From the NCBI RefSeq assembly GCF_028368995.1, contig NZ_JAQNDL010000001.1, positions 224,001 through 288,000 on the forward strand: 64,000 nt of DNA. Direction: 5' to 3'. The DNA comes from Nannocystis bainbridge. GTDB lineage: Bacteria > Myxococcota_A > Polyangia > Nannocystales > Nannocystaceae. Every line of letters begins with the position of its first letter. Position 1 is the first letter of the stretch. Below are positions 1,153-61,069 of this stretch, piece by piece. The translations under genes and the position numbers were made by a program. The notes under the pieces were generated by a model, which worked only from the letters and a program-made list of their open reading frames with translations, ran no database searches and had not been told where the DNA came from.

Positions 1153-1889
1153 TGACGACCTGGCTGCTCGCGCTCGACACCTCGACGCCGCGGACAGCGC
1201 TGGCGGTCGGTCACATCGACGCCGCGACCGGCAGCGCGCACGCGGTGGCGGAGGCGACGCATGACGATCGCGGGCGCCCGGCCTCGGCCGAGCTGGCAAC
1301 CCGGATCTCGGCGCTGCTGGCAGCGGCCGGCGTGGCGCCGCGCGAGCTCGGGGCGATCGCCTGCGGCCTCGGGCCCGGGATGTTCACCGGCAGCCGCGTC
1401 GCCCTGGCCACCGCCAAGGGGCTGGCGCTCGGCCTGGGCTGCCCGCTGTTCGGCCTCAGCACGCTGGCGATCGTGGCCGGTGCCGAGCGCGTCCGCGGGT
1501 CGGTCCTGGCCCTGCTCGACGCCCGCCGCGGCGATGTCTACGCGGCCGCGTTTCAGCTCGGCGACGCGGGGCCGGAGCGGCTGAGCGAGGATCGCTGCTG
1601 TCCTTTGGAGCAGGTGCTGGCCGAGCTGCCGCCGGCGTTCGTCGCCGAGGCGCGCGCGGTCGGCCCCGGCGTAGCGGTCGCCTCCGCCCTGCCCTCCGAG
1701 CTGCTCGCGCGCTCGCTGGCGGTCCCCGGCGCCGACGCGCCCGGGCTGTGGGCCGCGGCCGCCCGCGCGGCGCTGCACGAGGCGCCGGTCGACGTCGCCA
1801 CCGTCGACGCGGTCTACCTGCGCGCCAGCTACGCCGAGCTCGGGCTCAACACGCCCAAGCGCCCGCCGTACCGCTCGCCGTTCGTATGA
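1152..1889 (+). CDS. tsaB: tRNA threonylcarbamoyladenosine biosynthesis protein TsaB
   Basis: GTG at 1152 overlaps the rseP stop; motifs LLALDTST, GLGPGMFTGSR, LLDARRGDVY. Confidence 0.9.
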   Translation: MTTWLLALDTSTPRTALAVGHIDAATGSAHAVAEATHDDRGRPASAELATRISALLAAAGVAPRELGAIACGLGPGMFTGSRVALATAKGLALGLGCPLFGLSTLAIVAGAERVRGSVLALLDARRGDVYAAAFQLGDAGPERLSEDRCCPLEQVLAELPPAFVAEARAVGPGVAVASALPSELLARSLAVPGADAPGLWAAAARAALHEAPVDVATVDAVYLRASYAELGLNTPKRPPYRSPFV

Positions 1890-1956
1890 CCGCACGGACA
1901 TGCTCGATCGAGCATGTCGCTTCGCACATGGTCTCGTGGACATGTCCTCGAGAACA
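1887..1956. repeat. Phased array of five 14-bp TG-N10-CA palindromic units
   Basis: TGACC-GCAC-GGACA, TGCTC-GATC-GAGCA, TGTCG-CTTC-GCACA, TGGTC-TCGT-GGACA, TGTCC-TCGA-GAACA; CATG at 1899, 1913, 1927, 1941, 1955. Confidence 0.9.
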
Positions 1957-1985
1957 TGCGCTGCGTGCGTCGCCCGCCCCGGGCG

Positions 1986-2840
1986 TCAGAACGCCACCGA
2001 CAGCCCGCGGCCGCCGATCGCCAGCGCGGCGGCGGCGCGGCGGCGCTGGTCGCCGATGATGAGCATCGGCAGGCCGGCGGTGAAGGCCGTCGCCCCGGTG
2101 ACGATGCTGAGCGCGGCCGAGGCGTCGCGCTCGCGGCCGGCCATGCCGACGCCGAGGCCGACCACCAGCAGGCCACCGGCCATCAAGGCGACGCCGAGGT
2201 TGGTCCACAGCTTGCCCCGCTTGCCCGAGCGCGGCGGGATGGCGGGCACGTACGGAGTATCGAGCGGGGCGGCGCGGGCCAGGGCGCCTGGCTCGAGGAT
2301 CCGGTCGGAGAAGACATGTCCTTCGGGATAGGCGATGACCGCGCTGAGCGTGACCGAGGCGGGGGCCGGGGCCGCGGGGCCGGTGCACACCGAGCCGGCA
2401 GCGCGCAGGCGGGCGTCGACGCGGACGCGGGCGCCTCGCAGCAGGGCCACGGCCGCGGGCGTGAGCACGCCGGCAGACTCGAGCAGCCGCGCGTGGCGGA
2501 CCAGCCGGAGGTCGGCGGCGCACAGCAGGTCGGTGCGCGAAGGATCGTCGGCCTGGGCCTCGGCGGCCGCCTGCACGCCCTTCTCGAGCGGCTCGTGGGC
2601 GCTGCCGAGGAACCGCTGCGGGGCGGCGCTGCCCGTGAGGCGATCGTGCGCGCGGAAGTAAAACTCGGCGGCGCTGGCGTGGGCCCCCTCGGCGGCGCGC
2701 TCGTCGGCGTAACCGGTGAGGTTGTCGCTCCACAGCACGCTCTCGTGGACTGGGCCCTCGGCCGGCCGCGCCGCGACGGAACTGGCGCTCAGCGCCACCA
2801 CGAGCCCACAGGCGACCGCCCGGACACCGCGCATGCCCAC
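1986..2840 (-). CDS. Hypothetical secreted/membrane protein (signal peptide, two C-terminal hydrophobic helices)
   Basis: N-terminal hydrophobic stretch VACGLVVALSASSVAA; C-terminal TM-like segments; typical high-GC codon usage. Confidence 0.6.
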   Translation of the reverse strand: MGMRGVRAVACGLVVALSASSVAARPAEGPVHESVLWSDNLTGYADERAAEGAHASAAEFYFRAHDRLTGSAAPQRFLGSAHEPLEKGVQAAAEAQADDPSRTDLLCAADLRLVRHARLLESAGVLTPAAVALLRGARVRVDARLRAAGSVCTGPAAPAPASVTLSAVIAYPEGHVFSDRILEPGALARAAPLDTPYVPAIPPRSGKRGKLWTNLGVALMAGGLLVVGLGVGMAGRERDASAALSIVTGATAFTAGLPMLIIGDQRRRAAAALAIGGRGLSVAF

Positions 2841-2942
2841 CAGCCTACCGCCGGTGACGCGAGGGCGCCAGCCGGCGGCGCGTCGCCGCAGGCCGTGACT
2901 GCGCCGGCCGACCGCGCGATGTCGGAGTGACGCCGTCGTCGC

Positions 2943-4178
2943 TCAGCCGCGCAGGTGGGCCAGCAGTTGCTCGACGGTGTTGCGACGCGGATCTTCGAGG
3001 ACCCAGTCGAGCAGATCGACGAGCGTCTTGCCGAGCTTGGGACCGGGCGTAGCCAGCCCCTCGCGCACGAGGTCGTCGCCGCCGATGGCCAGCTCGCCGA
3101 CGGCCAGCGGTGCGCCGCGGATGGCCTCCTCGATCGTCACCGCCTGGGCCCACTCGCTCGCGTGCACGACGGCGGCGTCGGCGGCGTACTTGCGCCCGAG
3201 CTTGGCCAGCGTGCGCCGCAGCAGCAGCGGGTCGTGCGAGCGCGCCAGCGGCTCGAGCGCCGGGTTCGTGAGCGCGAGGACCCGCGCCCGCTCGTCCCGG
3301 CTCGGGCGCAGGTCGTCGATGATCTTCTCGATCGTCCCCCGCTCGCCGCGCAGCGGCCACAGCAGTCGGGCCAGGCGGGTCACCGGGTCGCGCGGCATGC
3401 GGTCCACATGCTCGATCGCCGCGGACTGCTCCTCGAAGCTCAGCGGGGCGAGCACGCGGGCCCAGATGCCGGTCTCGGCCATCGGCAGCAGGCCGAGGAT
3501 CGGGCGCGCGGCCGCCAGCAGCTTGAACAGCTCGACGTGGACGCGCTCGCGGCTGACCTTGTCGAGGACGTCGAGCGCGCCGCCGATCGCCGCGGCGGTG
3601 TCGAGGTCGAGCCTGTACTCGAGGACAGCACACAGCCGGACCGCACGCATGGCCCGGAGGCCGTCCTCCTGGAAGCGTTGGGCCGGGTCGCCGACGGCGC
3701 GGATGACCCCGCGGCCGAGGTCGCCGAGGCCGTCGAAGCAGTCGGTGAAGATCTCGCGGATGGGGTTCCAGGCGAAGGCGTTGATGGTGAAGTCGCGGCG
3801 CGCGAGGTCCTCGCGGAGGTCGCGGAGGAACCGGACCTCGGAGGGGCGCCGGCCGTCGTCGTAGCGGCCCTCGCCGCGGAAGGTCGTGATCTCGGCGAGG
3901 ATCCGGGCGTCGCCGCGGCCGTGGATGACGGTCACCGTGCCGTGCGCGACGCCGGTCGGGATCGTCTTCTTGAACAGCGTCTGGACCTCTTCGGGCGTGG
4001 CGCTGCTGGCGAGGTCCCAGTCGCCGTGAGTGCGGCCGAGGAGCACGTCGCGGACGGCGCCGCCGACCAGCACGGCCTCGTGTCCGGCGTCATGAAGGAT
4101 CTGGGCGATCTCACGGAGCGCGGCAGGGATGGGCGCGGCGCGCAGCAGGGCCGCCGCCTGCGAAGGCGTGGGGGTCAT
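2943..4178 (-). CDS. cca: CCA-adding tRNA nucleotidyltransferase (class II)
   Basis: LVGGAVRD..DWD, EITTFR, RRDFTINA, EDGLR; no poly(A) polymerase GRRF signature; start placed at ATG 4178. Confidence 0.85.
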   Translation of the reverse strand: MTPTPSQAAALLRAAPIPAALREIAQILHDAGHEAVLVGGAVRDVLLGRTHGDWDLASSATPEEVQTLFKKTIPTGVAHGTVTVIHGRGDARILAEITTFRGEGRYDDGRRPSEVRFLRDLREDLARRDFTINAFAWNPIREIFTDCFDGLGDLGRGVIRAVGDPAQRFQEDGLRAMRAVRLCAVLEYRLDLDTAAAIGGALDVLDKVSRERVHVELFKLLAAARPILGLLPMAETGIWARVLAPLSFEEQSAAIEHVDRMPRDPVTRLARLLWPLRGERGTIEKIIDDLRPSRDERARVLALTNPALEPLARSHDPLLLRRTLAKLGRKYAADAAVVHASEWAQAVTIEEAIRGAPLAVGELAIGGDDLVREGLATPGPKLGKTLVDLLDWVLEDPRRNTVEQLLAHLRG

Positions 4179-4242
4179 GCCACCGACGTTATCACTCACG
4201 CGGCCGGGTTCGCACGCCGGGGTGCTATGGTTGACCGTGGCC

Positions 4243-4632
4243 ATGGACTTCCCGATCCGGATCACGCCCCTCCTCCGACCCCTGCTCTTCCCGCTCCGGG
4301 CCTCGGGTGAGCGCGCGGCGGTGCGGATCGGCGGCGGACGGGTCGAGGTCGAGTTCGGGGTGTTGTTCCGCGGCAGCTTCGCGCTCGAGCAGATCGAGCA
4401 CGTCAGCCGCTCGACCTGGCCGTGGTGGAGCGGCCTCGGTCTGCGGCTCGGCGCGCGCGGCCGCGTGGGCCTCGTCGGTTCGCTCGAAGGGGTGGTCTGC
4501 GTCCACTTCAACCGCCCCCAGCGCGTCCGCGCGCCGTTCCCGTGGCGCTGCCGCGAGCTCTACCTGTCCCTCCACGACCCCGACGGCTTCATCGCCACCG
4601 TCGAGGCCGAGGCCCACATGGCCGCGGCATAG
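4243..4632 (+). CDS. Hypothetical protein (PH-like small beta domain)
   Basis: MDFPIRITP...LYLSLHDPDGFIA; typical codon usage; fills the gap between cca and polA. Confidence 0.6.
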   Translation: MDFPIRITPLLRPLLFPLRASGERAAVRIGGGRVEVEFGVLFRGSFALEQIEHVSRSTWPWWSGLGLRLGARGRVGLVGSLEGVVCVHFNRPQRVRAPFPWRCRELYLSLHDPDGFIATVEAEAHMAAA

Positions 4633-4644
4633 GACGCCGCCCGC

Positions 4645-7425: not shown

Positions 7426-7544
7426 GCAGCGGGTTCTACCACATGCGCGCCGCCCGTCGACCCGGTCCCGGCGCGCGCGGCGATCCGCGGCGCCGGAGCC
7501 GATCTGCGTCGGCGCACGTCATGGCCGCGGGGGAGCGCACGACC

Positions 7545-7725
7545 TGTCCTTCGGGGCAGGTGCTTGGCGACCTCGGCCGCGAGCGACATGAAAGGATCCC
7601 GACCCATGGCCACCTCGTCCGCGGCGGCTCTGCGTCGACATGTCCTCCGGGACATGTGATGCGAGCGGGCTCGGCCTTTCGACCTGTCCTCAGGGCCAGG
7701 TCCAGGCGACCTGTCCTTGGGGACA
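7545..7725. repeat. Cluster of four TGTCC-N4-GGACA-type palindromes upstream of polA
   Basis: 7545 TGTCC-TTCG-GGGCA; 7641 TGTCC-TCCG-GGACA; 7685 TGTCC-TCAG-GGCCA; 7712 TGTCC-TTGG-GGACA. Confidence 0.85.
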
Positions 7726-7733
7726 GGCGCGGG

Positions 7734-9875: not shown

Positions 9876-10040
9876 GGTGGCTCTCTTTACGGGCAGCGGT
9901 ACGGTCTGGATCGAGCGCAGGCATGTGCATGATCAGCGGCGCGATTGTACGCCAGCGTCGCGCGGCGCGCACCGCGGCGGTTGTCGCGGCAGCCTGCCCT
10001 TTTTTTGCCCTCCGCCGCCCGGACTCGTAGGGTCCGGCCA

Positions 10041-12236: not shown

Positions 12237-12237
12237 G

Positions 12238-12326
12238 TGTCCCCTGAGACATGTCGAAAAGGCCATGCTCTTCGGAGCATGGCCTTTTTTACATGTCGTA
12301 TCGGACATGCCCCCGAAGACATGTCC
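12238..12326. repeat. Phased array of six 14-bp TG-N10-CA units between convergent genes
   Basis: CATG at 12250, 12264, 12278, 12292, 12306, 12320 (exact 14-bp period). Confidence 0.92.
12257..12290. terminator. Probable bidirectional intrinsic terminator embedded in the 14-bp array
   Basis: AAAAGGCCATGCTC-TTCG-GAGCATGGCCTTTTTT: perfect stem, C(UUCG)G loop, A and T tracts on either side, between convergent stops at 12236 and 12338. Confidence 0.8.
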
Positions 12327-12337
12327 CTCTCGCCGCC

Positions 12338-15300: not shown

Positions 15301-15418
15301 CGAGGGTACGCCACCGCTGATCGCGGGTGCCCGCCGTCGCGACCGGGGCGAATAACGTGAGCAGCAACAGGCACCCCAACGCGAACCATCGCGCGCGGCC
15401 GGGGCGTGACGCAGACAC
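12338..15418 (-). CDS. Omp85/BamA-TamA-family outer membrane protein with N-terminal zinc-peptidase (HExxH) domain and TolB/PD40 propeller
   Basis: Signal peptide; THEYTH followed by WFIEGLATYEES; PRWSPDG, PAYSPDG and PVVSHDG repeats; barrel motifs FLRGF and FADVG; terminal Phe. Confidence 0.8.
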   Translation of the reverse strand: MSASRPGRARWFALGCLLLLTLFAPVATAGTRDQRWRTLETEHFVIHYYQGSEVAAERAAATMERAHSRLAPDLGHSPYLRTQVVLTDDTDSANGSASVVPYAHVNANVTAPESMSVLESYDDWLDVLLTHEYTHIVHIDTIHGVPRLVNALLGFGVLGKVWPPNGAQPRWFIEGLATYEESRLSSQGRHRSAQFDTMMRMHVLEHGFQPIDRVSSPGTIFPNVTTVYLYGLHLVDYIGTRYGHDKLRELSHTYGGQAVPYGIHRAVSKVLGVTFEQLWKEFELHMTRRFEAQARAIRGRGIREGRRLTFTVASEASNAFTRRPFWSADDRMIYFYDDDGHSNPGIRRISSRGGRIREGVGVGRQGQSTDIERVVEVQGATSGSFLPGGKDIVFEQWSLHDLRYAWNDLYLWHGQPGAPNARQGPADTEQLTFGLRARDAQVAPDGRTVVFVRNDVAQSRLAFLDLHTREVTEVAPVERTQQVYTPRWSPDGRKVAYSMHRAGGYRDLYVYDREAGTHTRVTADRWIDTTPAYSPDGRWLLFTSDRDHVLNVYAIDLATGRTHQVTNVLGAAFDPVVSHDGTRIAYIGASSTGYDLWVMKFDPSNFLEPLPTVDDLPVADEPDPPLPEDRGRPASARSSRYKPIRTMFPRAIAPASLDFGGAGQGLELGAKLEIADVVGYHRLTGVFRQFVDHQQPTGSVEYTFARLVPTFRFGFRRDFRIHDSTQRYSYDNISADGSFQPYAQKGYRERQTSVRAGIDVPIVRHAIHNASASLDYVFTRFRDLDRDRERLDPNAPATTPPAAGDLGRVDLELRYSNLRSVRHGYQEETGRAASVRLSVVDPHLGGQYGDIQVGAAYTERIRMPWRGHQVLALRIGGGASAGGLGRLGGFRLGGLRDQPDVIQSFLRREAFGEAGFLRGFAWRSLPGDYYAVLNSEYRIPLVDVERGMSSLPLYLRRLTTIPFADVGMAWTERLSRDALRWSLGMSLVFSFRIGYRETIDLFFTYAHGFAGRGDVNYFRALIARSF

Positions 15419-15430
15419 CCTCGAAGGATA

Positions 15431-16288: not shown

Positions 16289-16308
16289 GGGCCGATAGCC
16301 CGGGGCCC

Positions 16309-18132: not shown

Positions 18133-18404
18133 AGCTCTCCGAACCCGCTCTTGATCAGCTTGCTCAGGGCGTCGAAGCCCGGCGTGGCGTCGGCACCCTC
18201 GACGCGAAGCATGACACGGCTGCCCTGACCGCACGCGAGCATGAGCACGCCGAGGATGCTCTTGGCGTTGACCTCGGTGCCCTCGCGCGCGATCCAGACG
18301 TCGGACTTGAACTTGTTGGCGAGGTTCACCAGCTTGCTCGCGGCCCTGGCGTGGAGACCGAGCTTGTTGACGATCTCGAACTCACCCTGCATCTGCTTGC
18401 TCAT
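18129..18404 (-). CDS. ptsH: Phosphocarrier protein HPr
   Basis: NKLGLHARAA (His15) and NAKSILGVLML (Ser46). Confidence 0.95.
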   Translation of the reverse strand: MSKQMQGEFEIVNKLGLHARAASKLVNLANKFKSDVWIAREGTEVNAKSILGVLMLACGQGSRVMLRVEGADATPGFDALSKLIKSGFGEL

Positions 18405-32719: not shown

Positions 32720-33954
32720 TCCGCCGCTTCGCCCTCCTCAGCACCGCCCTCGCCCTCGCCGCCTGCAACCCCTCCAGCGGCAGCACCGACACCGACACCG
32801 GCACCGGCACCGAGACCGACGGACCTGGCACGACGGACATGTCCCCCACGACAGGTGAGGCGCCGGTCGTGGTCGAGCTCGACGCCCCCTGCGACTTCGG
32901 TCCCGACGGCGCCACCGAGCTCGCGCTCGTGACCAACGACTTCGTCGCCCCCGCCGGGCTCGGCCGCGTCGACACCGGCGAGCGCCAGATCCTCGCCGAC
33001 CTCCTGCCGGCCACCACCGACACCGCCCTCGGCGCGACCGGCGAGTGGCTCGTCATGGTCCACCGCTTCGGCCACAACCGCATCGACGTGGTCGACCGCG
33101 GCGCATGGCTGCTGCGCGGCTCGGTCGACGTCACCCACAGCGCCGCCGACGACCCCAACCCGCAGGGCGTCACCTTCGCCGCCGACGGCCTCGCCTACGT
33201 GCCGCTGTTCGCCGCGCCGGCGGTCCAGATCTACGACTTCTCGGTCGCCGAGTCGTCGGCCTGGCTGCAGGGCGAGATCGATCTCTCGCCGTTCGCCGAC
33301 GCTGACGGCAGCCCCGAGGCCGGACTCGCGCTCGCGTGCGGCGGCGTGCTGTTCGTCGGCATCCAGCGCCTCGTCGACTTCGCGCCCGTCGACAGCAGCT
33401 ACCTCGTCGCCGTCGACCTCGCGGCGCGGGCCCTGCTCGACCTCGACGTCGCCACGGCAGGCACCCAGGGCATCGAGCTGCTCGGCGCCTACCCCAAGCA
33501 GGTCCGCCGCGATCCGGCCGACGCCGCCGGCCACACCGCGCTGGTCCTGACCTCCGGCGTCGAGCGCGTCGACCTGTCCCGAGGGACATCCGAGTGGGCG
33601 GTCGCCCCCGAAGTCCTGGCGGAGGCCAGCATCGACGGCTTCGACCCGCAGGCGTTCGTCGTCGCCCCCGACGGCGCCTCGATCTTCCTCACTGCCACCG
33701 ACGGTGACTATCCGGCCGCGGCCGTGTTCCAGGTCGGCCTCGATGGCGGCGAGCCGACCGCCCCGGTCAAGGTCGTCGCTGGCCTCAACTCCGGCGACAG
33801 GATGCTCGAGAGAATCGGCGGCACGCTGTGGATCGGCGACGCCAACGGGGCGGCGCCGCGGCTCCGCCTCTACGACGTCGCCGCCGCCGTCGAGGTCGAG
33901 GTCGACGGCCTGACGACCAAGGCCGCCCCGTGGACCTTCATCCCCCTGCCCTGA
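32716..33954 (+). CDS. Lipoprotein with predicted beta-propeller (YncE/BtuG-like), copy 1
   Basis: ATG 32716 overlaps the btuB stop; lipobox ALAAC; NPQGV, AYVPLF and IDLSPFADADGSPEA segments. Confidence 0.7.
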   Translation: MIRRFALLSTALALAACNPSSGSTDTDTGTGTETDGPGTTDMSPTTGEAPVVVELDAPCDFGPDGATELALVTNDFVAPAGLGRVDTGERQILADLLPATTDTALGATGEWLVMVHRFGHNRIDVVDRGAWLLRGSVDVTHSAADDPNPQGVTFAADGLAYVPLFAAPAVQIYDFSVAESSAWLQGEIDLSPFADADGSPEAGLALACGGVLFVGIQRLVDFAPVDSSYLVAVDLAARALLDLDVATAGTQGIELLGAYPKQVRRDPADAAGHTALVLTSGVERVDLSRGTSEWAVAPEVLAEASIDGFDPQAFVVAPDGASIFLTATDGDYPAAAVFQVGLDGGEPTAPVKVVAGLNSGDRMLERIGGTLWIGDANGAAPRLRLYDVAAAVEVEVDGLTTKAAPWTFIPLP

Positions 33955-33967
33955 GAGACAGGTCCTC

Positions 33968-35188
33968 ATGAACATGTCCGTTCGCACCTGTGCTCTCGTG
34001 GTGGTCGGTCTCGGCTGCGAATTTGCCGGCCCACTGCCCGGCGACGGCCCGCCGGCCACCGACGCGCCGACGCCGATCGCCGGCTGGCCGCGCGAGGTCG
34101 GCGCCTGCGTCGGCGACTCGGCCGCGCCGACGCGGCTGCTCGTGACCACCACCGACTTCGCCACCGGCGGGGTCAGCACGGTCGCGCTGGCGGGCTTCAC
34201 CGCGCTGGCCGACGTCGCGCTCGGCAGCACCGACGCCAAGCCGTTCTTCTTCGACGGCACCGCCTATGTGCTGCACCGCTACGGCCTCGACGCCCTCGAC
34301 GTGCTCGACCCCGACGACGGCTTCCGCCTGCTGGCGCAGCGGGCGATCGTCGCCGGGGACCCCGAGGTCGTCAGCGCCAACCCGCACGCGCTGGTGGTCG
34401 GTCCCGACGGCCGCGGCTACGTCTCGCTGTTCGGCGCGCCCGAGGTGCAGGTGTGGGACCTGGCCGATGGGACAGCTCCGAGGTTGACCGGGCGCATCGA
34501 CCTCTCGCCGCTGGCCGACGCCGATGGCAACCCCGAGGCCTCCGAGGTCCTGCTGTGCGGCGGCGTGCTGTTCCTCGCCGTCGACCGCGTCGACCAGGAC
34601 GCCGGCCTGGTGCCGAACGAGCCGCGGGCCCGCCTCGCGGCCGTCGACCTCGCCAGCGGCGCCGTGCACGACCTCGACCCCGCGACGCCCGGCGCCCAGG
34701 GCCTGGCGCTGCTCGGCGGGTGGGCCCGGCAATTTCGCCTCGACCCTGCCGACCCGACCGGACGCACCGCGCTGGTCCTCACCACCGGCCTCGAGCGCGT
34801 CGACCTGTCCTCGGGGACATCCGCGTGGGCGGTCGCCGATGCCCGCCTGCAGGCCGCCGGCCTGACCGACTACCGCCTGCCGCAGGCGTTCGCGCTCGGT
34901 CCGGGCGGGACCGACGTCTATCTGGCCGCCTACCGCGTCGACTTCAGCGAGGTCGCGCTGTTCCGCGCCGCGCTGGACCGCGACGAGCCGCTCGTCGAGC
35001 TCGCGTCCGGCATGCAGTCGGTCGAGCAGAGCCTCGAGGTCATCGGCGACATCCTCTACTTCGGCGACCGCGCCCACGGGGCCTCGGGCCTGCGCGCGTG
35101 GGACCTGCGCCAGAGCCCGCCCGCGCCGCTGCCGGGCGCCCCGCTCGCGCTCGGCCTCGCCCCCTACGCCGCCGTGGCGATCCCCTGA
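33968..35188 (+). CDS. Lipoprotein with predicted beta-propeller (YncE/BtuG-like), copy 2
   Basis: Lipobox VGLGC; paralogous to the previous gene (NPHAL, GYVSLFGAPEVQVWD, IDLSPLADADGNPEA, TALVLTTGLERVDLS). Confidence 0.7.
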   Translation: MNMSVRTCALVVVGLGCEFAGPLPGDGPPATDAPTPIAGWPREVGACVGDSAAPTRLLVTTTDFATGGVSTVALAGFTALADVALGSTDAKPFFFDGTAYVLHRYGLDALDVLDPDDGFRLLAQRAIVAGDPEVVSANPHALVVGPDGRGYVSLFGAPEVQVWDLADGTAPRLTGRIDLSPLADADGNPEASEVLLCGGVLFLAVDRVDQDAGLVPNEPRARLAAVDLASGAVHDLDPATPGAQGLALLGGWARQFRLDPADPTGRTALVLTTGLERVDLSSGTSAWAVADARLQAAGLTDYRLPQAFALGPGGTDVYLAAYRVDFSEVALFRAALDRDEPLVELASGMQSVEQSLEVIGDILYFGDRAHGASGLRAWDLRQSPPAPLPGAPLALGLAPYAAVAIP

Positions 35189-42301: not shown

Positions 42302-42376
42302 TGTCCGCCGAGACATGTCCAATCGGGCATGCCTCTGCGGACATGACTTTTAAAAAGAAGCATGTCCCCGGGGACA
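42302..42376. repeat. Array of 14-bp palindromic units (three phased plus one perfect)
   Basis: CATG at 42300, 42314, 42328, 42342; then TGTCC-CCGG-GGACA at 42363-42376 after a TTTTAAAAA spacer. Confidence 0.88.
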
Positions 42377-45908: not shown

Positions 45909-48260
45909 ATGGAGCGCTGGCGCATCACCGCGGGCCACGTCCCCGGCACTCTCGGCCTGCTGCTGATCCTCGCGGCCGTGGCCCTGGCGATCGTCGAGGC
46001 CGCCCGGGCCTACCGCAAACCTGTCCCTGGGGTCAGCCCGCGGCTGCGCGCCGGCCTGTTCGCGCTGCGCTGCGCCGGCGCCCTCGCGCTGCTGGCCGTC
46101 GCGCTCGAGCTGTCGCTCAGCTTCGAGACCACCAGCGCCGCCGGCCCGCGCCTGGTCATGCTCGTCGACGACAGCGCCAGCATGGGCATCGCCGACGCCG
46201 CGTCGGCCAGCCAGGCGACCATGCGCCGCATCGATCGCGTGCGCGACCTGTGGCGCCGCTCCGAGCCCGCGCGCGCCGACTGGAAGGAGCAGGGCCTCGC
46301 CGTCCAGGTGCGCCGCTTCGGCGAGGGCAGCGAACCGCTCTCCGGCCAGGCCGAGGCCACCCTCGACCTCGACGCCCGCCAGCCCGCCTCCGACCTCACC
46401 CGCGCCTTCGCCGAGCTCGCCGCCATCGACCCCGCCGTCGACCCGCGCCCGCTCGCTGGTGTCATCGTCGTCTCCGACGGCCTCTTCGACCGCGCCGACC
46501 GCGGCGGCGACGACCCGCTGGTGCTCGCCGCCCGCGAGCTCGGCGTGCCCGTCACGGCCGTCGCCGCCGGCGCCCCGCACCTCGTCGACCTCGCCCTCAC
46601 CGAGCTGCGCGCCGGCGAGTTCGCCTTCGTCGAGAACGTCGTCGAGTTCGCCGCCGACATCGAGGCCCACGGCCTCGAGGGCGTCAAGACCGAGGTCGTC
46701 CTGCGCCGCGACGGCCAGGTCGTCGCCACCGAGCCCTTCGTCGCCCCTGCCAGCGGCGAGACCACCGTCCGCTTCGAGGTCGCCCCTGACCGCGTCGGCC
46801 AGTTCGTCTACGAGATCGAGGTCCGCCCCGTCGACGGCGAGGCCAGCCCGCACAACAACCGCCGCGCCTTCGTGGTCAAGGTCCTGCGCGACAAGGTCCG
46901 CGCCCTGCACGTCGCCGGCCGCCCCGACTGGGACGTCCGGGCCCTCCGCACCCTGCTCGGCCGCGACCCCAACGTCGAGCTGCTCAGCTACTACATCTTG
47001 CGCGGGGCCGACGACGCCGACCGCGAGGACCCGTTCGCTCCGCTGTCGCTGATCGCCTTCCCCACCGACGAGCTGTTCAAGGAGCAGCTCGGCAGCTTCG
47101 ACCTCGTCATTCTCCACAACTTCGACGCCCTCAACCACCAGGTCGGCCGCTACTTGCCCGACATCGGCCGCTACGTCGAGGAGGGCGGCGCCCTGGTGAT
47201 GATCGGCGGCGACATGGGCCTCGCCACCGGTGATTATCCCGCGCCCGCGCTCTCGGCCGTCGTCCCGGTCGACCTGCGCGTGCCCACCGGCCTCGACGTC
47301 GAGCCGTTCCGCCCCGCGATCACCGACGCCGGCCGGCGCCACCCGATCACCGCGTGGATCGATCACAGCCGCCTGTCCGATTGGTCGACCCTGCCGCCGC
47401 TCGACAGCTACAACCCCGCCAAGCTGGCCCGCCACGAGGCCGAGATCGGCAGCGCCGTGCTGCTGCGTCACCCCGAGGGCGGCCCGCTGCTCACCATCGC
47501 CGAGCCCGGTCGCGGCCGCGTCCTCGTGTTCAGCACCGGCGCCAGCTGGCGGCTCGGCTTCCACGCCGACCTCCCGATCGTCGACGGCGCGCGGCCTTAC
47601 GATCTCCTGTGGCTCGGCGCGATCCGCTGGCTGCTGCGCGACAGCGCCGCCGACCGCCTCACCCTCGAGACCGACCGCCCCACCTATCTGCTCGGCGCCC
47701 CGATCACCCTGCGGGCCGCCGCGCTCTCGCCCTCCTACGCCCCCGAGGCCGGCGTCGAGGTCGGCTGGCGCGTGCAACCACTCGGCCACGCCGCCGACGA
47801 TCCCGGCGCCGATCCCAACGCCCCCGTCACGATCCTGTCCCAGGGGACATGGACCACCGACGCGCTCGGGCGGGCCAGCGAGACCCTCGGCGGCGGCCTC
47901 TCGGTCGGCGCCTACGAGGCCGTGGCCCAGCGCGCTGGCGGCGACGAGGCCTCCGCCGCCCCGCAGCAGGCGCGCCGCGTCTTCCTCGTCCAGGCCGCCG
48001 GCCGCGAGCTCACCCGCCTCGCCAGCGGCCCCGGCGACGAGCGGCTGCAGCGGCTCGCCGAGGCCACCGGCGGCCGCTTCTTGCGCGCCGGCAGCGACGA
48101 CCTGCCTGCCTCCCCGCCGCTGGCCCCCGATCGCCAGGATCGCGAGCGCGTCGACAGTCGCCGCGACGTCCCGGTCTGGAGCGGCGGCCTCGCCATGGTC
48201 TTGCTCATCGTCTGTCTCGGCGGCGAAGTCCTGGTGCGGCGCCGGGTCGGCCTCGCCTGA
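45909..48260 (+). CDS. Membrane protein with vWA-like and glutamine-amidotransferase-like domains
   Basis: N-terminal TMs; LVDDSASM, VVSDG, YVEEGGALVMIGG, GRGRV, LAEATGGRF; C-terminal TM ending RRRVGLA. Confidence 0.7.
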   Translation: MERWRITAGHVPGTLGLLLILAAVALAIVEAARAYRKPVPGVSPRLRAGLFALRCAGALALLAVALELSLSFETTSAAGPRLVMLVDDSASMGIADAASASQATMRRIDRVRDLWRRSEPARADWKEQGLAVQVRRFGEGSEPLSGQAEATLDLDARQPASDLTRAFAELAAIDPAVDPRPLAGVIVVSDGLFDRADRGGDDPLVLAARELGVPVTAVAAGAPHLVDLALTELRAGEFAFVENVVEFAADIEAHGLEGVKTEVVLRRDGQVVATEPFVAPASGETTVRFEVAPDRVGQFVYEIEVRPVDGEASPHNNRRAFVVKVLRDKVRALHVAGRPDWDVRALRTLLGRDPNVELLSYYILRGADDADREDPFAPLSLIAFPTDELFKEQLGSFDLVILHNFDALNHQVGRYLPDIGRYVEEGGALVMIGGDMGLATGDYPAPALSAVVPVDLRVPTGLDVEPFRPAITDAGRRHPITAWIDHSRLSDWSTLPPLDSYNPAKLARHEAEIGSAVLLRHPEGGPLLTIAEPGRGRVLVFSTGASWRLGFHADLPIVDGARPYDLLWLGAIRWLLRDSAADRLTLETDRPTYLLGAPITLRAAALSPSYAPEAGVEVGWRVQPLGHAADDPGADPNAPVTILSQGTWTTDALGRASETLGGGLSVGAYEAVAQRAGGDEASAAPQQARRVFLVQAAGRELTRLASGPGDERLQRLAEATGGRFLRAGSDDLPASPPLAPDRQDRERVDSRRDVPVWSGGLAMVLLIVCLGGEVLVRRRVGLA

Positions 48261-48751: not shown

Positions 48752-51513
48752 AGCTCCGCGCGCCGCGACCCGCCTCCGACCTCCTGTCCGCGCCCGTCGC
48801 GGCGCCGCGCGCCGGCGCGCCCGACATGTCCTTCGGGACATCCGGAAGACCTCGCCGTCCCGCCACGGACCTGTCCTCCGGGACAGCTGCATCCACCCCG
48901 CGGCGCGCCGCCCTCCTCACCGGCCTCGGCGTCCTCCTGTCCTTCGGGACAGCTCACGCCCAGGAGCCACGCGCCCTCGACCGCGCCGTCTCTGACGGCG
49001 TCGAGCGCCCGATCAAGGACTACTCCGGCGAGGGTGACGCCAGCAGCATCGAGCTCAACCCCGCCCTGCTCTCGGCGGTCAAGGGCCTCGACTTCGTGTT
49101 CATGGGTTACCGCTCGATCAGCCCGTTCACGCGCGGCGGCGGCCTCGGCGGCTTCATGAGCTTCAACCTCGGCTTCGGCATGGCCACCGGCATCGGCGTG
49201 CAGGCGCTGCGGCCCGGCTTCGGCGGCGGGTATCCCGACCCCTTCGCCCTGCGCAACCCTGACGCCACCAAGATCTCGTGGGCCCTCTCGGGCGGCGACG
49301 GCAAGATCGCCGCCTTCGGCCTCGGCGTGCACTGGCTGCGGGCTGACGGCCTCCTGCGCGCCCCCGACCTCGACGTCGGCCTCCTGCTGCGGATCCGCAA
49401 CTACGCCTCGATCGGCGCCGTCGCTCGCTTCGGCGCCGCCGACCTCCGGGCCTACGGCGACCTCGCCAGCGAGCTCTCGATCCTCGGCGAGCTCGCCCTC
49501 CGGCCGCTCGGTAACCGCACCCTCGAGCTCGCCGGCGGCGTACGCGGCCGCTTCCGCGTCGACCAACCTGGCCTTCGGTTCAGCCAGTGGGACAACCTCG
49601 GCGCCCTCCCGCGCGGCCGCATCGCCGTGCGTCACAAGGGCCTCGAGCTCGCCGCCGAGGTCGAGCAGGTCCGCGTCCACACCCTCGATCCTTCGACCTA
49701 CAACTTCGTGCGCGCCGACAAGGCCGTGCGCGGCTCGGTCCAGCTCGCGGTCGCCTGGGACTTCATGAAGGTCAGCGGCGGCGTGCACGCCGGCCTCGGC
49801 GAGGGCGTCGACGGCTTCGGCCTCGCTGCCCGCTTCTCGACCGCGCGCCAGGGTCGCGTGTTTTGGCCGCGCCTCGTCGACGTCGAGCGCGTCGACCTGT
49901 CCGCGATCAAGGGCGAGCGCCACCTGCTCGGCCTCTTGCAGCGGCTCGAGCGGGCCGAGAAGGCCGGCGCGCGCACCATCCTGCTCGTCGACGCGCGCAG
50001 CACCGGCCTCGGCTGGGCCAGCCTGCAGGAGATCCGCGGCGCCCTGGTCCGGATCCGCAACGCCGGCGGCCACGTCTTCGCCTACCTCGAGGACACCAAG
50101 CTCAAGGACTACTACCTCGCCAGCGCCGCCGAGCAGGTGTTCCTCCACCCTGCCGGCGAGCTCGCCACCTTCGGCCTCGCCTCGACCACCTTCTACCTGC
50201 GCGGCCTGCTCGACAAGCTCGGCGTCCAGGTCGAGGCGCTGCACATCGACGAGTACAAGTCCGCCCACGAGATGTTCTCGCGGACAGGTCCGTCCGACAA
50301 GGACGTCGAGCAGCGCGAGGCCCTGCTCGACGACACCTTCGCCCAGATCACCCACGACATCGCCCAGGCCCGCGGTCTCAGCATCGCCCAGGTCCAGGGC
50401 CTCGTCGACGACGCCCCCTACGGCCCTGCCAAGGCCAAGCAGCTCGGCCTCGTCGACGCCGTCGTCTTCCGCGACCAGGTCGTCGAGAAGATCGGCGACG
50501 CCGTCGGCGCGCGCGTCAAGTTCGCCCAGTTCGACGACACCGAACCTGACCCGAAGACCTGGTCGACCGCGCCCTACGTCGCCGTCGTGCTCGTCGAGGG
50601 CACCATCGTCGACGGCGAGAGCCGCACCATCCCGCTGCTCGGCACCCAGTTCACCGGCGGCGACACCATCGTCGCCCAGCTGCGGGCCGTGCGAAACGAC
50701 CCCGCCTGTCAGGGCGTCGTCCTGCGCGTCAACAGCCCCGGCGGCAGCGCCCTCGCCTCCGACGTCATCTGGCGCGAGGTCTCGCGCACCCACGAGGCGT
50801 GGAAGAAGAACCCGCGCAAGAGCCCGCCGATCGTCGTCTCGATGGGCGACGTCGCCGCCAGCGGTGGTTACTACGTCGCCGCCGGCACCGACCACGTGTT
50901 CGCCCAGCCCACCACCCTCACCGGCTCGATCGGCGTCGTCTCCTTGCACTTCGACGTGAGCGGCCTGCTCGCCAAGCTCGGCGTCGCCACCCACACCTTC
51001 AAGCGCGGCAAGAACGCCGACATCTCCGGCCTCTACCGCCCCTACAGCCCCGACGAGCGCGCCCGCATGGACGCCTCGATCCGCCGCGTCTACGACCTCT
51101 TCCTCAAGCGCGTCGCCGACGCCCGCGGCAAGACCCCCGAGCAGGTCGACGCCCTCGGCCGCGGCCACGTCTACTCCGGCACCGACGCCAAGCAGCTCGG
51201 CCTCGTCGACGCCTTCGGCGGCCTGCGCGAGGCCGTCGCCCTCGTGCGCCAGCGCAGCGGCGTCGGCGAGCGCCGCGACCTCCAGCTGCGCATCGTCCCG
51301 GCCCGCAAGGGCATCCTCGAGCTCGTCCTCGACCTGCTCGGCCCCGATCGCGGCGACAAGGGCCTGCGCGGCCGGATCCAGGCCCGCCGCGACGCCGAGC
51401 CCCCGCTCCCGCTGGTCCTCACCACCGCGATCGCCCGCCTCCCCCTCGGCCTCCTGTTCCTCCCGCAAGATCAACCGAGCGCCCTCATGCCGGTCGTGCA
51501 CACGATCGAGTGA
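48748..51513 (+). CDS. sppA: Signal peptide peptidase SppA (S49) with N-terminal predicted beta-barrel domain, copy 1
   Basis: YYLASAA, EYKSA (Lys), LRVNSPGGSALAS, VAASGGYY (Ser), TLTGSIGV, GHVYSG. Start uncertain (GTG 48748 or ATG 48826). Confidence 0.85.
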   Translation: MKLRAPRPASDLLSAPVAAPRAGAPDMSFGTSGRPRRPATDLSSGTAASTPRRAALLTGLGVLLSFGTAHAQEPRALDRAVSDGVERPIKDYSGEGDASSIELNPALLSAVKGLDFVFMGYRSISPFTRGGGLGGFMSFNLGFGMATGIGVQALRPGFGGGYPDPFALRNPDATKISWALSGGDGKIAAFGLGVHWLRADGLLRAPDLDVGLLLRIRNYASIGAVARFGAADLRAYGDLASELSILGELALRPLGNRTLELAGGVRGRFRVDQPGLRFSQWDNLGALPRGRIAVRHKGLELAAEVEQVRVHTLDPSTYNFVRADKAVRGSVQLAVAWDFMKVSGGVHAGLGEGVDGFGLAARFSTARQGRVFWPRLVDVERVDLSAIKGERHLLGLLQRLERAEKAGARTILLVDARSTGLGWASLQEIRGALVRIRNAGGHVFAYLEDTKLKDYYLASAAEQVFLHPAGELATFGLASTTFYLRGLLDKLGVQVEALHIDEYKSAHEMFSRTGPSDKDVEQREALLDDTFAQITHDIAQARGLSIAQVQGLVDDAPYGPAKAKQLGLVDAVVFRDQVVEKIGDAVGARVKFAQFDDTEPDPKTWSTAPYVAVVLVEGTIVDGESRTIPLLGTQFTGGDTIVAQLRAVRNDPACQGVVLRVNSPGGSALASDVIWREVSRTHEAWKKNPRKSPPIVVSMGDVAASGGYYVAAGTDHVFAQPTTLTGSIGVVSLHFDVSGLLAKLGVATHTFKRGKNADISGLYRPYSPDERARMDASIRRVYDLFLKRVADARGKTPEQVDALGRGHVYSGTDAKQLGLVDAFGGLREAVALVRQRSGVGERRDLQLRIVPARKGILELVLDLLGPDRGDKGLRGRIQARRDAEPPLPLVLTTAIARLPLGLLFLPQDQPSALMPVVHTIE

Positions 51514-51757: not shown

Positions 51758-54787
<3,030 letters not shown>

Positions 54788-54791
54788 CGCC

Positions 54792-54880
54792 TGTCCTCCA
54801 GGGCATGTCCGCGAGGACCTGCGCGAAAGCGCATGTCTTTTCGAACATGCACGAAAGGGCATGCCCTCGCGGACATGCCC
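54792..54880. repeat. Phased array of six 14-bp units between convergent genes
   Basis: C(A/C)TG cores at 54790, 54804, 54818, 54832, 54846, 54860, 54874. Confidence 0.92.
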
Positions 54881-54904
54881 GTCACGCCCGCGTCCGCGAC
54901 CCGC

Positions 54905-58418: not shown

Positions 58419-61069
58419 CACGGCTGAACCCATACCACGGTCACGCCCTCGCCGCCCTCGCGCTGCAGGCCCGGGCGCTTGCGGTGGATGAACGGCTGCT
58501 CGGCCAGGTACTCGCGCACCGCCTTGCGCAGGGCCCCGGTGCCGTGGCCGTGGATCACCACCACCACCTCGAGGTCCTTCTGCATCGCCTCGTCGAGGAA
58601 GCGATCGATCGTCCGCAGCGCGTCCTCGGCCCGCGCCCCGCGGACATCCACGCTGTTGTCGATGCCGACCTCGATCGCCGCCGCCGACTCCCCGAAGTGC
58701 TTGCTCGCCGTCGAAGGCAGCGGCTCCGGCACCTCCCACCGGCGCACCGGCGCCGCCACGCCCGGCTTCACCTTCGCCCGCGTGCGCGTCGGAGTCCGCA
58801 GCGAGCGCAGCTCCGTCAGCGGCACCGTCGTCTTCAGCGCCTCGACCTGGACCACCGCGCGCTCGCCCTGCACCGCCAGCACCTCGCCCTGCTTGCCGAG
58901 CGACACCACCATCACCCGCTCGCCCGGCACCAGCTGCACCGGCGGCTCGCCCGGGGCCTTCGGGGCCGGCTCGCGCCGCTCCGCCAATTGCCCGCGCCCG
59001 GCCTGCAGCCCGCCCTTGGCCGCCTCCAGCGCCACGTCGAGCTTGCCCTCCTTCTCGGCCTTGCGCACCTGCTTGCGCAGATCGGCCACCTCGGCGTGCA
59101 GCGCCCGCAGCTCCGCCGACGCCGCGTCGTACGCCTTTTGCTTGCGGCTCTTGGCCTGCTCGAGCGCCGCCGCCTCGCGCCTGGCCACCTCCTGGTTGCG
59201 CCGGCGCAGCTCGTCCCGCTCGCGGTCGACCTCCAGCCGCGTCGTGATCAGCCGGTCGCGCTCCGCCACCACCTCCTGAAGCAGTTGGTCGACCCGCAGC
59301 CGGCCCTCGTCCATCAGCCCCTGCGCCACCTGCAGCACCGGCTCCGGCAGCCCCAGGCGGCGCGCCACCGTCAGCGCGCTCGACGGCCCCGGCACCCCGA
59401 TCAGCAGGCGGAACGTCGGCATCAACTTCTCGAGATCGAAGCCCACCGACGCGTTGATGAAGCGCCCGGGGAACCGCTGCGCCAGCAGCTTGAGCCGCTC
59501 GTAGTGGGTCGTCGTCACCACCGACGCCCCGTGCTCCGTCAGCGCCAGCAGGATCGCCTCGGCCAGCGCCGCGCCCTGCTCCGGATCGGTGCCGACCGCG
59601 ATCTCGTCGAGCAGCACCAGCGTCCCGCCGTGCTCGACCTGCGCCGACGCCAGCGCCGCGCACACGTGCTGCATGTGCGCCGAGAACGTGCTGAGGTTGG
59701 CCGCGATCGACTGGTCGTCGCCGACGTCCGTCACGATCGCCCGCACCAGGGGCAGCCGCGCCGGTCGCCGCGTCGGCAGCCGCAGCCCCGCCTGCGCCAT
59801 CAGGGCGCACAGCCCCAGCGTCTTGAGCGCGACCGTCTTGCCGCCCGCGTTCGGCCCGCTGATCACCAGCGCCGACCCGAGCTCGAGCAGGATGTCGTTC
59901 GGCACCACCTCGACGCCCGACAGCACCATCAACGGGTGGCGCGCGCCGATCAGCTCGAAGCGGTCCATCGCCGCCTCGTCCTCGCTCGCGCGCGCCGCCC
60001 CGACCTCGGGCGCCAGCCCGTGGTACGCGTCGGCGAAGCGCAGCCGCGCGTGGATGGCGTCGAGCGCGATCAGCTGCTGTTGATTGGCGCGCAGCTGGGC
60101 CGCCGCGATCCCGACGCTGCGGCTCAGCTGCTCGAGCACTCGCCGCTCCTCCGCCGCCGCTTGCATCTGCGCCGCGCGCAGCGAGTTGTTCTCCTCCATC
60201 AACTCGCTCGGCTCGACGAACAGCGTCTGCCCGGTCGCGCTGCTGTCGTGGATGATGCCGGTCAGCGAGCCGCGGCGCGTGAACGCGTCGGCGCGGACCG
60301 GCAGCACGATCCGGCCCTCGCGCTCGGTGTAGTACGAGTCCTGCAGCACCTCGGCCACACCTGACTGTTTGACCAGGCGACTCGCCGCCTTCATGAGCGA
60401 CGCCTTGAGCTCGCGGACCCGCTGCCGCGCCTTTTGCAGCCCGGGGCTGGCGCCGTCGACCACCCACGGCTCGCCCTCCGGGCCGTCGGGCGCGATCGAT
60501 CGGCCGAGCGCGCCGGCCAGCTCGCGCTGGGGGTGGAGCTCCCCGAGCCGGGTCGCCAGCGTGAGCACCCCGGGATCGCTCGCGTAGCCCCGCTCGGCCG
60601 CGACCGCCGCGTTCAGATCCACGCACAGCTTCACCGCCTGCAACTGGCGCAGGGCTGCGAGCAGTTCCGCGGGCAGCAGCATCACGCCGCGGCTCGCGCG
60701 CATGACCGCGTCGGAGATGTCGCTCAGTGCCCCCAGAGCGTCCGCCAAATTGCCGGGGCCGCCCGACTCGCGGGCCAGGGACGCCTGCACGGCCAGGAGC
60801 GCCTGCAGCCCGTCCTGCTCGGACAGCAGGGTTCGCACCTGCGCCGGTTCGGAGGTCCGCCGCAGCACCGGCGCCGCGTCGGCTTCGTACGGCTTGCGGG
60901 CCAGCTCCGCCGCGACCTCGGCCTGCAGCAGCGAGCGGGCCATCGGCGTGCGCAGGTGTTCGGCGAGGCGCTCGCACAGGAGCGGCCAGCCGAGGTGAAC
61001 GAGCACCGAGCGGCTGCTCGGCGAGCTCGTCCCGGTCTTGGTGGTTCGCGAATTCTCCGGGCCGTTCAC
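58418..61069 (-). CDS. mutS2: Endonuclease MutS2 (Smr domain)
   Basis: IHDSSATGQTLFVEP, ISGPNAGGKT, LSTFSAHM, LLDEIAVGTDP, TTHY, Smr motif VIHGHGTG. Confidence 0.93.
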   Translation of the reverse strand: MNGPENSRTTKTGTSSPSSRSVLVHLGWPLLCERLAEHLRTPMARSLLQAEVAAELARKPYEADAAPVLRRTSEPAQVRTLLSEQDGLQALLAVQASLARESGGPGNLADALGALSDISDAVMRASRGVMLLPAELLAALRQLQAVKLCVDLNAAVAAERGYASDPGVLTLATRLGELHPQRELAGALGRSIAPDGPEGEPWVVDGASPGLQKARQRVRELKASLMKAASRLVKQSGVAEVLQDSYYTEREGRIVLPVRADAFTRRGSLTGIIHDSSATGQTLFVEPSELMEENNSLRAAQMQAAAEERRVLEQLSRSVGIAAAQLRANQQQLIALDAIHARLRFADAYHGLAPEVGAARASEDEAAMDRFELIGARHPLMVLSGVEVVPNDILLELGSALVISGPNAGGKTVALKTLGLCALMAQAGLRLPTRRPARLPLVRAIVTDVGDDQSIAANLSTFSAHMQHVCAALASAQVEHGGTLVLLDEIAVGTDPEQGAALAEAILLALTEHGASVVTTTHYERLKLLAQRFPGRFINASVGFDLEKLMPTFRLLIGVPGPSSALTVARRLGLPEPVLQVAQGLMDEGRLRVDQLLQEVVAERDRLITTRLEVDRERDELRRRNQEVARREAAALEQAKSRKQKAYDAASAELRALHAEVADLRKQVRKAEKEGKLDVALEAAKGGLQAGRGQLAERREPAPKAPGEPPVQLVPGERVMVVSLGKQGEVLAVQGERAVVQVEALKTTVPLTELRSLRTPTRTRAKVKPGVAAPVRRWEVPEPLPSTASKHFGESAAAIEVGIDNSVDVRGARAEDALRTIDRFLDEAMQKDLEVVVVIHGHGTGALRKAVREYLAEQPFIHRKRPGLQREGGEGVTVVWVQP

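Follow-up and report, generated by a model that had tools for sequence, protein, structure and literature searches.

What kind of system repeats one short palindrome thousands of times along a bacterial genome, inside genes as well as between them? The question is raised by a 64,000-nucleotide stretch of Nannocystis bainbridge (hereafter the window; C1:224001-288000 of the genome G000, which comprises 11.05 Mb in 5 contigs at 71.5% G+C), where the 14-bp word TGTCC-N4-GGACA recurs both singly and in arrays. The answer that we place first, giving it somewhat less than an even chance, is that the word may be a duplex-DNA site for an abundant symmetric (dimeric) candidate protein, with the arrays produced by slippage in DNA that tolerates them. 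We favor this reading because the spacing of the arms is fixed, the center is free with a flexible pyrimidine-purine step at the dyad, and positions G2 and C13 are nearly invariant; and because the two halves evolve independently, the word is strand-symmetric, the copies within coding sequences (CDS) stem from substitution, and the spacers that hold promoters are avoided.

The window contains 10 perfect copies, against a mean of 0.06 and a maximum of 1 in 100 dinucleotide shuffles, and, when sites with at most one mismatch are counted, 39 where 1.66 would be expected. A preliminary description of this DNA, made from the letters alone, had located the ten perfect copies correctly and had set them against a rough expectation of 0.05, with which the shuffles agree; the near-copies that it listed proved real in 26 of 26 instances, 19 of them having one mismatch and 7 having two (at 5908, 15800, 25641, 29305, 31463, 31914, and 51838). 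Genome-wide, the perfect arms at spacings N0 to N15 occur 6, 0, 8, 16, 1987, 5, 3, 2, 2, 7, 11, 6, 5, 7, 19, and 12 times, respectively; that is, 1987 copies at N4 versus 0-19 at the other spacings, which is the sharp and solitary peak that the same description had named as supporting evidence. Copies with one mismatch likewise number 4258 at N4 versus 98-322 at N2, N3, N5, N6, and N7, so that the 11.05 Mb hold 6245 sites with at most one mismatch, or one per 1.8 kb, within the one per 1-2 kb first proposed. A scan of every 5-bp arm at spacings N0-N12 returned only the TGTCC-N4-GGACA family, the top rows consisting of the word and shifted readings of it; and TGTCCCGA is the most over-represented 8-mer of the genome relative to a maximal-order Markov expectation.

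The enrichment also persists under a codon-aware null, in which synonymous codons were shuffled within each predicted CDS in five separate shuffles: 766 perfect copies were observed in CDS versus 15-25 after shuffling, the spacings of the same phase (N1, N7, and N10) having 0, 2, and 4 copies, respectively. After shuffling, N4 still stands above the other spacings (15-25 versus 1-7); the protein sequences themselves have therefore been shaped. On all five contigs the density is about 28 sites per 50 kb (at most one mismatch), with the exception of a few sparse stretches of lower G+C. The signal is genome-wide, strand-symmetric, and tiled into exact 14-bp arrays, as had been claimed. The sparse stretches (C1:1.10-1.30 Mb and C2:0.75-0.80 Mb) have 2-6 sites per 50 kb at a G+C fraction of 0.68-0.70 and may be accessory islands; two 20-kb samples of them contained large genes, 5 of 8 without a Pfam family, and among those genes were a 2130-aa DEAD-type helicase-like gene, a WD40 kinase gene, and a pyruvate phosphate dikinase-type gene.

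As to the anatomy of the unit, the arms are fixed, and the 4-bp center is free with a tendency to Y-Y-R-R (pyrimidines followed by purines), the commonest center, CCGA, accounting for 107 of the 1987 perfect copies (about 5%). The flanks extend the palindrome as ACA...TGT (ACATG-N10-CATGT, 1472 copies) or alternatively as ACC...GGT (ACCTG-N10-CAGGT, 282 copies), and GACAT-N12-ATGTC occurs 1057 times genome-wide. The half-sites alone are not enriched (TGTCC, 12351 occurrences, versus TGACC, 12390), and 4205 occurrences of TGTCC, a third of all, lie inside a full site; whatever reads the word must therefore be symmetric. Among the 4258 one-mismatch sites, only 29 change G2 and 21 change C13, the positions most tolerant of mismatch being 3/12 and 5/10.

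Distances between neighboring sites (at most one mismatch) peak at 14 bp (485 pairs), 28 bp (274), 42 bp (165), and 56 bp (58). The units thus abut exactly, and in so doing create the junction palindrome GGACATGTCC, present in 956 copies versus 9-75 for similar 10-mers. The autonomous unit, nevertheless, is the 14-mer and not the junction: at 493 of the 1987 perfect 14-mers both flanking half-sites are unrecognizable, whereas just 33 of the 956 junctions lack a partner on both sides. The arrays reach at least 8 units, and those of at least three units (n = 435) are intergenic in 315 instances, within CDS in 61, and mixed in 59. Other recurrent spacings, of 36, 39, and 48 bp, reflect local tandem repeats of longer period that carry one unit each; the periods of these repeats are multiples of three, and some of the repeats resemble coding peptide repeats.

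The location of the sites relative to genes was obtained with a home-made caller based on third-position G+C that covered 83% of the genome, and whose calls in the window agree with Pfam, so that the percentages that follow are approximate. The perfect copies comprise 1203 that are intergenic, 766 wholly within CDS (39%), and 18 that straddle a boundary; the preliminary description, which had noted both placements, had missed the association with gene 3' ends and convergent spacers and the avoidance of promoter spacers. A site with at most one mismatch is present in 730 of 1285 convergent spacers (57%), at 8-12 sites per kb in those shorter than 250 bp, and in 933 of 3510 tandem spacers (27%), versus only 30 of the 643 divergent ones below 250 bp (5%; 0.4 sites per kb); in the reading that we favor, selection would act against sites in promoter spacers. 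Measured from the stop codon, the first site lies most often at -3, +2, +11, and +16, the -3 peak arising where a TGA stop doubles as the start of a TGACC unit. Inside genes, the copies are evenly spread along the gene and occur in all frames with the cheapest favored (435, 268, and 63 copies); 110 of the 268 copies in one of the frames read ATG at the junction position, so that some copies may sit on translation starts. Within the window, the four well-supported convergent spacers (1890-1985, 12237-12337, 42297-42662, and 54788-54904) all have arrays, and 7 of the 10 perfect copies lie in predicted coding sequence. The sites and arrays of the window referred to below are the following, with the strand of the open reading frames (ORFs) in parentheses:

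1887..1970: roughly six contiguous units, forming an array in the spacer that separates the convergent ORFs 1152-1889 (+) and 1986-2840 (-); its leading unit (TGACC-GCAC-GGACA) opens with a TGA stop, and the sites at 1887, 1915, 1929, and 1943 are in phase.
7545..7725: cluster of four sites, at 7545, 7641 (perfect), 7685, and 7712 (perfect), in the spacer 3' of the kinase gene 7734-9875 (-) and 5' of polA 4645-7425 (-); three of the four have GACC...GGTC flanks.
12238..12321: six to seven units, filling the convergent spacer 12237-12337 as an array; on the two sides of a central TGCTC-TTCG-GAGCA, the units are nearly reverse complementary to one another.
33575..33588: perfect copy in ORF 32716-33954, read as D-L-S-R-G-T.
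33947..33988: three degenerate units, abutting one another, that run across both the stop of ORF 32716-33954 and the start of ORF 33968-35188.
34806..34819: perfect copy in the tandem paralogue ORF 33968-35188, at the place equivalent to 33575.
42302..42376: abutting units at 42302, 42316, and 42330 plus a perfect copy at 42363, the array beginning 6 bp past a stop codon in the spacer where ORF 41895-42296 (+) converges with the Tpt1-like ORF 42663-43217 (-).
47836..47849: perfect copy in ORF 45909-48260, CTG TCC CAG GGG ACA (L-S-Q-G-T).
48827..48951: three perfect copies in one reading frame at the predicted N-terminus of an S49 peptidase, MSFGTSGRPRRPATDLSSGTAASTPRRAALLTGLGVLLSFGTAHAQEP; the first overlaps a candidate ATG start (ACATGTCC, 48826-48828) and the third lies in a signal-peptide-like stretch.
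53506..53533: perfect copy and an abutting one-mismatch unit in the M16 peptidase ORF 51938-54787, both conserved in four close species.
54792..54875: array that fills the convergent spacer 54788-54904 and can form a long hairpin on either strand; across five species its CATG junctions are conserved and the 4-bp centers differ.

The two tandem paralogues, ORFs 32716-33954 and 33968-35188, belong to no Pfam family and carry the palindrome at an equal codon position. A cobalamin riboswitch (29987-30216 (+), 93 bits) precedes a TonB-dependent receptor gene (30584-32716), these two paralogues, and genes for a periplasmic binding protein and a FecCD permease, a set that looks like a B12 uptake operon. 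Elsewhere in the window, an RNA polymerase omega (Rpb6) homologue (26894-27451 (-)) is predicted to have 185 aa, of which the Pfam domain covers just residues 7-59.

The distribution of the sites among the spacers excludes a classical transcription-factor regulon or a set of sigma-54 enhancers, in view of the 0.4 sites per kb in short divergent spacers versus 8-12 in short convergent ones. Sites located at promoters were also considered as a clue to an autoregulated reader, and the 56 short divergent spacers with a site revealed no shared theme.

The same distribution invites an interpretation at the level of RNA, in which the arrays would be bidirectional terminators or hairpins that stabilize 3' ends, with the in-gene copies as by-products. 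The spacer pattern (57% convergent, 27% tandem, and 5% short divergent), the peaks in distance from the stop codon, the arrays in four of four window spacers, and hairpins equally stable on both strands all speak in its favor, as does a scan for consensus terminators over window positions 1-20000, none of whose 8 hits fell in the two convergent spacers there (1890-1985 and 12237-12337). An intrinsic terminator in the usual sense was rejected on the strength of that same scan, along with the lack of a T tract and of any sense-strand asymmetry: genome-wide there is no enrichment of T after the site, and the centers in tandem spacers, when read on the sense strand, have no preferred orientation (TTCG 29 versus CGAA 37). 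Structure alone, moreover, needs no specific sequence, and 766 perfect copies lie evenly inside genes, where terminators would be harmful.

A hairpin maintained as such would be expected to leave covariation, for which we examined 4977 units defined solely by phase with a good neighbor, taking shuffled right halves as the null. The arms do not covary: deviant pairs were complementary at frequencies of 0.101 versus 0.089, 0.034 versus 0.030, 0.116 versus 0.142, 0.088 versus 0.084, and 0.112 versus 0.090 in the shuffled units; and the center pairs were complementary as expected (0.306 versus 0.319 and 0.269 versus 0.261). The compensatory arm pairs of a first count (TGCCC..GGGCA, 146 versus 60 expected) were absent from this unbiased phase-defined test. 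Considering in addition that in a second genus, g2, convergent spacers hold just 3 of 43 examined copies, we regard the interpretation at the level of RNA as quite improbable.

The comparison of related genomes reveals how the copies come about. Orthologous loci were found with the protein of ORF 45909-48257; their identity was 93-95% in the named Nannocystis (N. punicea, N. pusilla, N. exedens, and Nannocystis sp.), 62-64% in Nannocystis metagenome-assembled genomes (MAGs), and about 50% in other Nannocystaceae, which places the window in Nannocystis. At site 47836, five of the six other Nannocystis rows, two deep MAG loci included, read CTG TCC SAR GGG ACA (L-S-x-G-T), the sixth, L003, being out of frame there; in the outgroup, all seven rows differ in both residues and codons, one of them being V-A-A-G-T encoded by GTC GCC GCC GGC ACC, an example that involves no change in length. 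The codons GGG and ACA at this site end in G or A; the outgroup codons there are GGC and ACC. An alignment of the window with the deep lineage L006 covered four CDS sites, of which one is shared and three are present in the window's lineage alone, and at those three several substitutions run towards the word; at sites 50273 and 52866, the word is absent from sister lineages. The CDS copies, as these alignments indicate, owe their origin to substitutions that alter amino acids and bring in rare codons.

In the spacers the arrays behave otherwise. Among the four close species the CDS copies are conserved in place, whereas the spacer arrays vary in unit number and in nearly every center, keeping the CATG junctions. 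Neighboring centers within arrays are directly identical 68 times versus 27 expected; centers two units apart (n = 681) agree within one mismatch 104 times directly versus 56 expected and 106 times as inverted copies versus 57.5, and the centers at i and i+2 are inverted-identical 30 times versus 8.5. Because neighboring and next-but-one centers are thus related, the arrays grow by local duplication in both orientations. A side observation concerns N. exedens (L004, 19347-19649), in which an insertion of about 290 bp lies at an exact unit junction of an orthologous convergent-spacer array; no repeat of that insertion was found in G000 or in the other loci.

Duplication of this sort raises the possibility of a selfish or structural repeat akin to the repetitive extragenic palindromic (REP) sequences and bacterial interspersed mosaic elements (BIMEs), forming a DNA or RNA hairpin from a palindrome of up to 24 bp, GGACATGTCC-N4-GGACATGTCC, and spread by an enzyme or by slippage so as to pile up where insertions are tolerated. 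The resemblance is considerable: like the REP and BIME of Enterobacteria and Pseudomonas, the word is a short, hairpin-capable, lineage-restricted palindrome whose copies, hundreds to thousands in number, cluster at gene 3' ends, occupy 730 of 1285 convergent spacers, and form arrays, for the most part intergenic from three units upwards; the extended palindrome is frequent (1472 and 1057 copies), the predicted hairpins are stable, the array centers were duplicated in both orientations, and the unit number differs between species. REP units, however, are 20-40 bp long, essentially extragenic, and tied to a gene for a Y1 transposase (the REP-associated tyrosine transposase, RAYT) that they typically flank, whereas here the unit has 14 bp with a free 4-bp center and exact abutment, and 39% of the perfect copies are in CDS, where they arose by substitution without change in length. 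A search for RAYT (PF01797) in G000, an assembly 90.5% complete, gave 0 matches at E <= 0.001, versus matches in 6 of 14 control genomes; membership in the REP/RAYT class was accordingly rejected, the copies, moreover, not being confined to extragenic DNA (766 of 1987 in CDS). A self-megablast of G000 returned ribosomal RNA operons, contig-end duplications, and a few 2-kb repeats, none flanked by the word, so that neither long repeats nor insertion sequences (IS) are associated with it. The centers, furthermore, are far too diverse for copies of a master element (the top 4-mer at about 5%), the arms do not covary, and isolated CDS sites predominate in g2. We therefore hold a REP-like origin to be improbable. 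The contig-end duplications (C1:4515659-4536530, C2:3021502-3033751, C5:707284-720618, and C2:1-3617) are 7-17 kb long, 99.0-100% identical, and inverted or shared; either fold-backs of the assembly or true terminal repeats could explain them.

The taxonomic range was obtained by a pattern search for the 14-mer in 61 Nannocystaceae genomes, with the reversed pattern as the single control for composition, and gave the following copies per genome:

Genus g1, that of the window: 333-2090 copies, in 8 of 8 genomes, G000 included.
Genus g4: 67-696 copies, in 7 of 7 genomes.
Genus g2: 87-169 copies, in 5 of 5 genomes.
Genus g232: 5-20 copies.
The 13 remaining genera: 0-11 copies.
Reversed-pattern control: 0-10 copies in every genome.

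The word is consequently enriched in just three genera of the Nannocystaceae, at a graded density; the notion of a chromosome-wide signal, correct for this genome, had overlooked that two further genera share it. Two abutting perfect units were found in 9 of the 10 other genomes searched within the genus; beyond it, the pair was absent from all 8 other genera searched in the family, all 12 other families in the class, and all 300 further genomes in the phylum. The double motif had no match in viral contigs. In the g2 genome G011 (87 copies), 43 copies were examined, of which 27 stand singly within predicted CDS and 3 lie in convergent spacers; the dispersed single sites therefore look basic, and the gene-end arrays look like an expansion particular to Nannocystis. 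Positions are not conserved between the genera, since only 5 of 41 comparisons of G011 copies with G000 orthologues gave a match in place, a number compatible with chance; and 200 kb of G011 revealed no other enriched palindrome of the 5-Nk-5 type that might be analogous.

A word so dispersed might also be the product of molecular drive, spreading without benefit at each site as would an uptake word (the DNA uptake sequence, DUS, or uptake signal sequence, USS) or the target of a biased repair; DNA with the word would be favored in uptake or recombination, or repaired towards it. Such a process would account for the dispersion over all five contigs, for CDS copies in all frames and even along genes, for substitutions towards the motif despite amino-acid changes and rare codons, and for the shaping of protein sequence; it is also compatible with the scarcity of sites in lower-G+C stretches with large Pfam-less genes and with the graded density across three genera. 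The likeness to DUS and USS indeed extends to some 10-12 specified bases, to roughly one site per kb, to the presence in coding sequence at a cost to the protein and often at gene ends, and to lineage 'dialects', the word here being, as they are, a dispersed and over-represented word of one lineage in both genes and spacers. The DUS of Neisseria and the USS of the Pasteurellaceae, by contrast, are asymmetric and form hairpins just as inverted pairs, whereas here the symmetric 14-mer is itself the unit, the half-sites alone are not enriched, so that the reader must be symmetric, and arrays are the rule in spacers. Exact 14-bp tiling and a contrast of about 20-fold between convergent and divergent spacers, moreover, would be unexpected from drive alone, and we consider this explanation to have a low probability.

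Other known systems offer further parallels. HIP1 of the cyanobacteria (GCGATCGC) is a contiguous 8-mer without spacer, tiling, or bias to gene ends, for which a link to a methyltransferase has been proposed, and whose reader and function are, to our knowledge, not established. Like HIP1, the word is a lineage-restricted palindrome that is orders of magnitude commoner than expected, in genes as in spacers, and that has conserved occurrences; unlike it, the word has the N4 spacer, the tiling, and the bias to gene ends. The Neisseria dRS3 element, of 20 bp (6-N8-6), is exclusively intergenic and a target of phage integration. The short inverted arms, the variable center, the hundreds of copies, and the intergenic mosaics recall dRS3 and the mosaic elements (NIMEs) of that genus; for the word, though, no phage or IS link was seen. 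Head-to-tail palindromic boxes whose centers and junctions are both dyads are in turn familiar from the operator arrays of ribbon-helix-helix proteins, on which dimers sit side by side (the met-boxes of MetJ and the centromeres of ParR, omega, and TubR); those arrays are local, at a few promoters or centromeres, as opposed to thousands of chromosomal sites here that avoid promoters.

With parS and the Noc-binding sites (NBS) the word has in common a dispersed palindrome of 14-16 bp, the parS arms TGTTCC/GGAACA being one base from TGTCC/GGACA; parS sites, however, number in the tens versus thousands here. ParB and Noc can be excluded because the genome has a single ParB_N gene (C3:1147646-1147930) and its canonical parS sites, six identical copies of GTTCCACGTGAAAC, lie together in 2 kb at C1:4343337-4345347, separate from the word and on another contig than that gene. 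Rfam 15, at the gathering score, does not match the word, its sole match in the window being the cobalamin riboswitch. The word thus shares features with REP/BIME, HIP1, the uptake sequences, and dRS3/NIME and fits none of them; the earlier statement that it matched none of the systems there named holds for those that we tested. No description of the word in bacteria was found in the full-text literature open to search, supplements and subscription journals falling outside that scope; and the matches listed for GGACATGTCC were to work on p53 or to eukaryotic and viral studies, and included no bacterial repeat. The repeat system therefore appears to be undescribed, and we take it to be a lineage-wide iterated palindrome, with a real chance that its mechanism is new.

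The two mechanisms offered by the preliminary description, a dimeric protein that polymerizes on phased sites and a REP-like hairpin system, fare unequally on this evidence: the first fits better, given the absence of covariation, the constancy of G2 and C13, the free center, and the origin of the CDS copies by substitution, and the second fits less well. What the analysis shows directly is the enrichment, the build of the unit, its placement, the way in which copies arise in genes, and the range among genera; a protein reader, its dimeric and cooperative binding, and the effect of that binding are inferred. Under the symmetric-protein reading, which would place the protein in Nannocystis and two sister genera, each half-site would be read base-specifically, the 4-bp center remaining unread except for a Y-Y-R-R preference that would suit bending at the dyad. 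Single sites would be kept, and newly made by point substitution, all along the chromosome, genes included; and where the sequence is free, as behind stop codons and between convergent genes, slippage would multiply them into abutting arrays. On such arrays the dimers might lie side by side, a step of 14 bp corresponding to a rotation of about 120 degrees, so that three units (42 bp) would equal four helical turns.

Nucleoid organization and the insulation of gene ends would be the leading candidate roles. The arrays at gene ends suggest an insulation of convergent units or a handling of supercoils; the dispersed sites within genes suggest a nucleoid-wide role, and make a strong roadblock at single sites less plausible. 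A more elaborate proposal, possible but doubtful in our estimation, is a new chromosome-marking system of Nannocystis and its two sister genera, in which a dedicated symmetric protein reads a word that selection wrote thousands of times into genes and spacers, polymerizes on arrays behind most convergent gene pairs, and acts as insulator or nucleoid anchor; the insulator version would amount to a sequence-specific, protein-based, and bidirectional roadblock or supercoil barrier at gene ends. We know of no comparable bacterial chromosome-marking system of such a kind and scale.

Several observations weigh against a protein that reads duplex DNA. No cognate protein for the word was found, no phyletic screen having been made, and some 6000 sites would demand an unusually abundant specific binder. 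The location in Nannocystis (convergent over tandem and far over divergent spacers, with arrays that start on the stop codon) is also what terminators or REP would give, in addition to being measured with the approximate gene calls mentioned above. G-U-compatible variants have a weak excess on the sense strand (327 versus 272 antisense). The predicted hairpins are strong, at -56 and -57 kcal/mol on the two strands of 54785-54885 (z about -6) and at -43 and -42 kcal/mol on those of 42290-42385, both of these convergent-spacer arrays having z values of -3.8 to -6.2; long array hairpins on both strands arise because the junctions are self-complementary. Finally, the inverted centers around a central unit (106 of 681 versus 57.5 expected) hint at some hairpin-linked process or selection.

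Lineage-wide repeated palindromes and words, such as REP, HIP1, and the uptake sequences, are few, and each has been instructive on genome maintenance. The present one is a tractable case: the site is sharp and bipartite, single copies in genes can be set against tiled arrays behind them, and promoters are strongly avoided. Its graded density in three genera, with background levels in 13 others, furnishes a phyletic handle on the cognate gene, and N. exedens, N. pusilla, and N. punicea are culturable. In practical terms, the word marks the native DNA of natural-product producers and causes trouble in assembly and in the polymerase chain reaction. If a protein does read it, the finding would bear on how the large, GC-rich chromosomes of myxobacteria separate convergent transcription units or organize their nucleoid.

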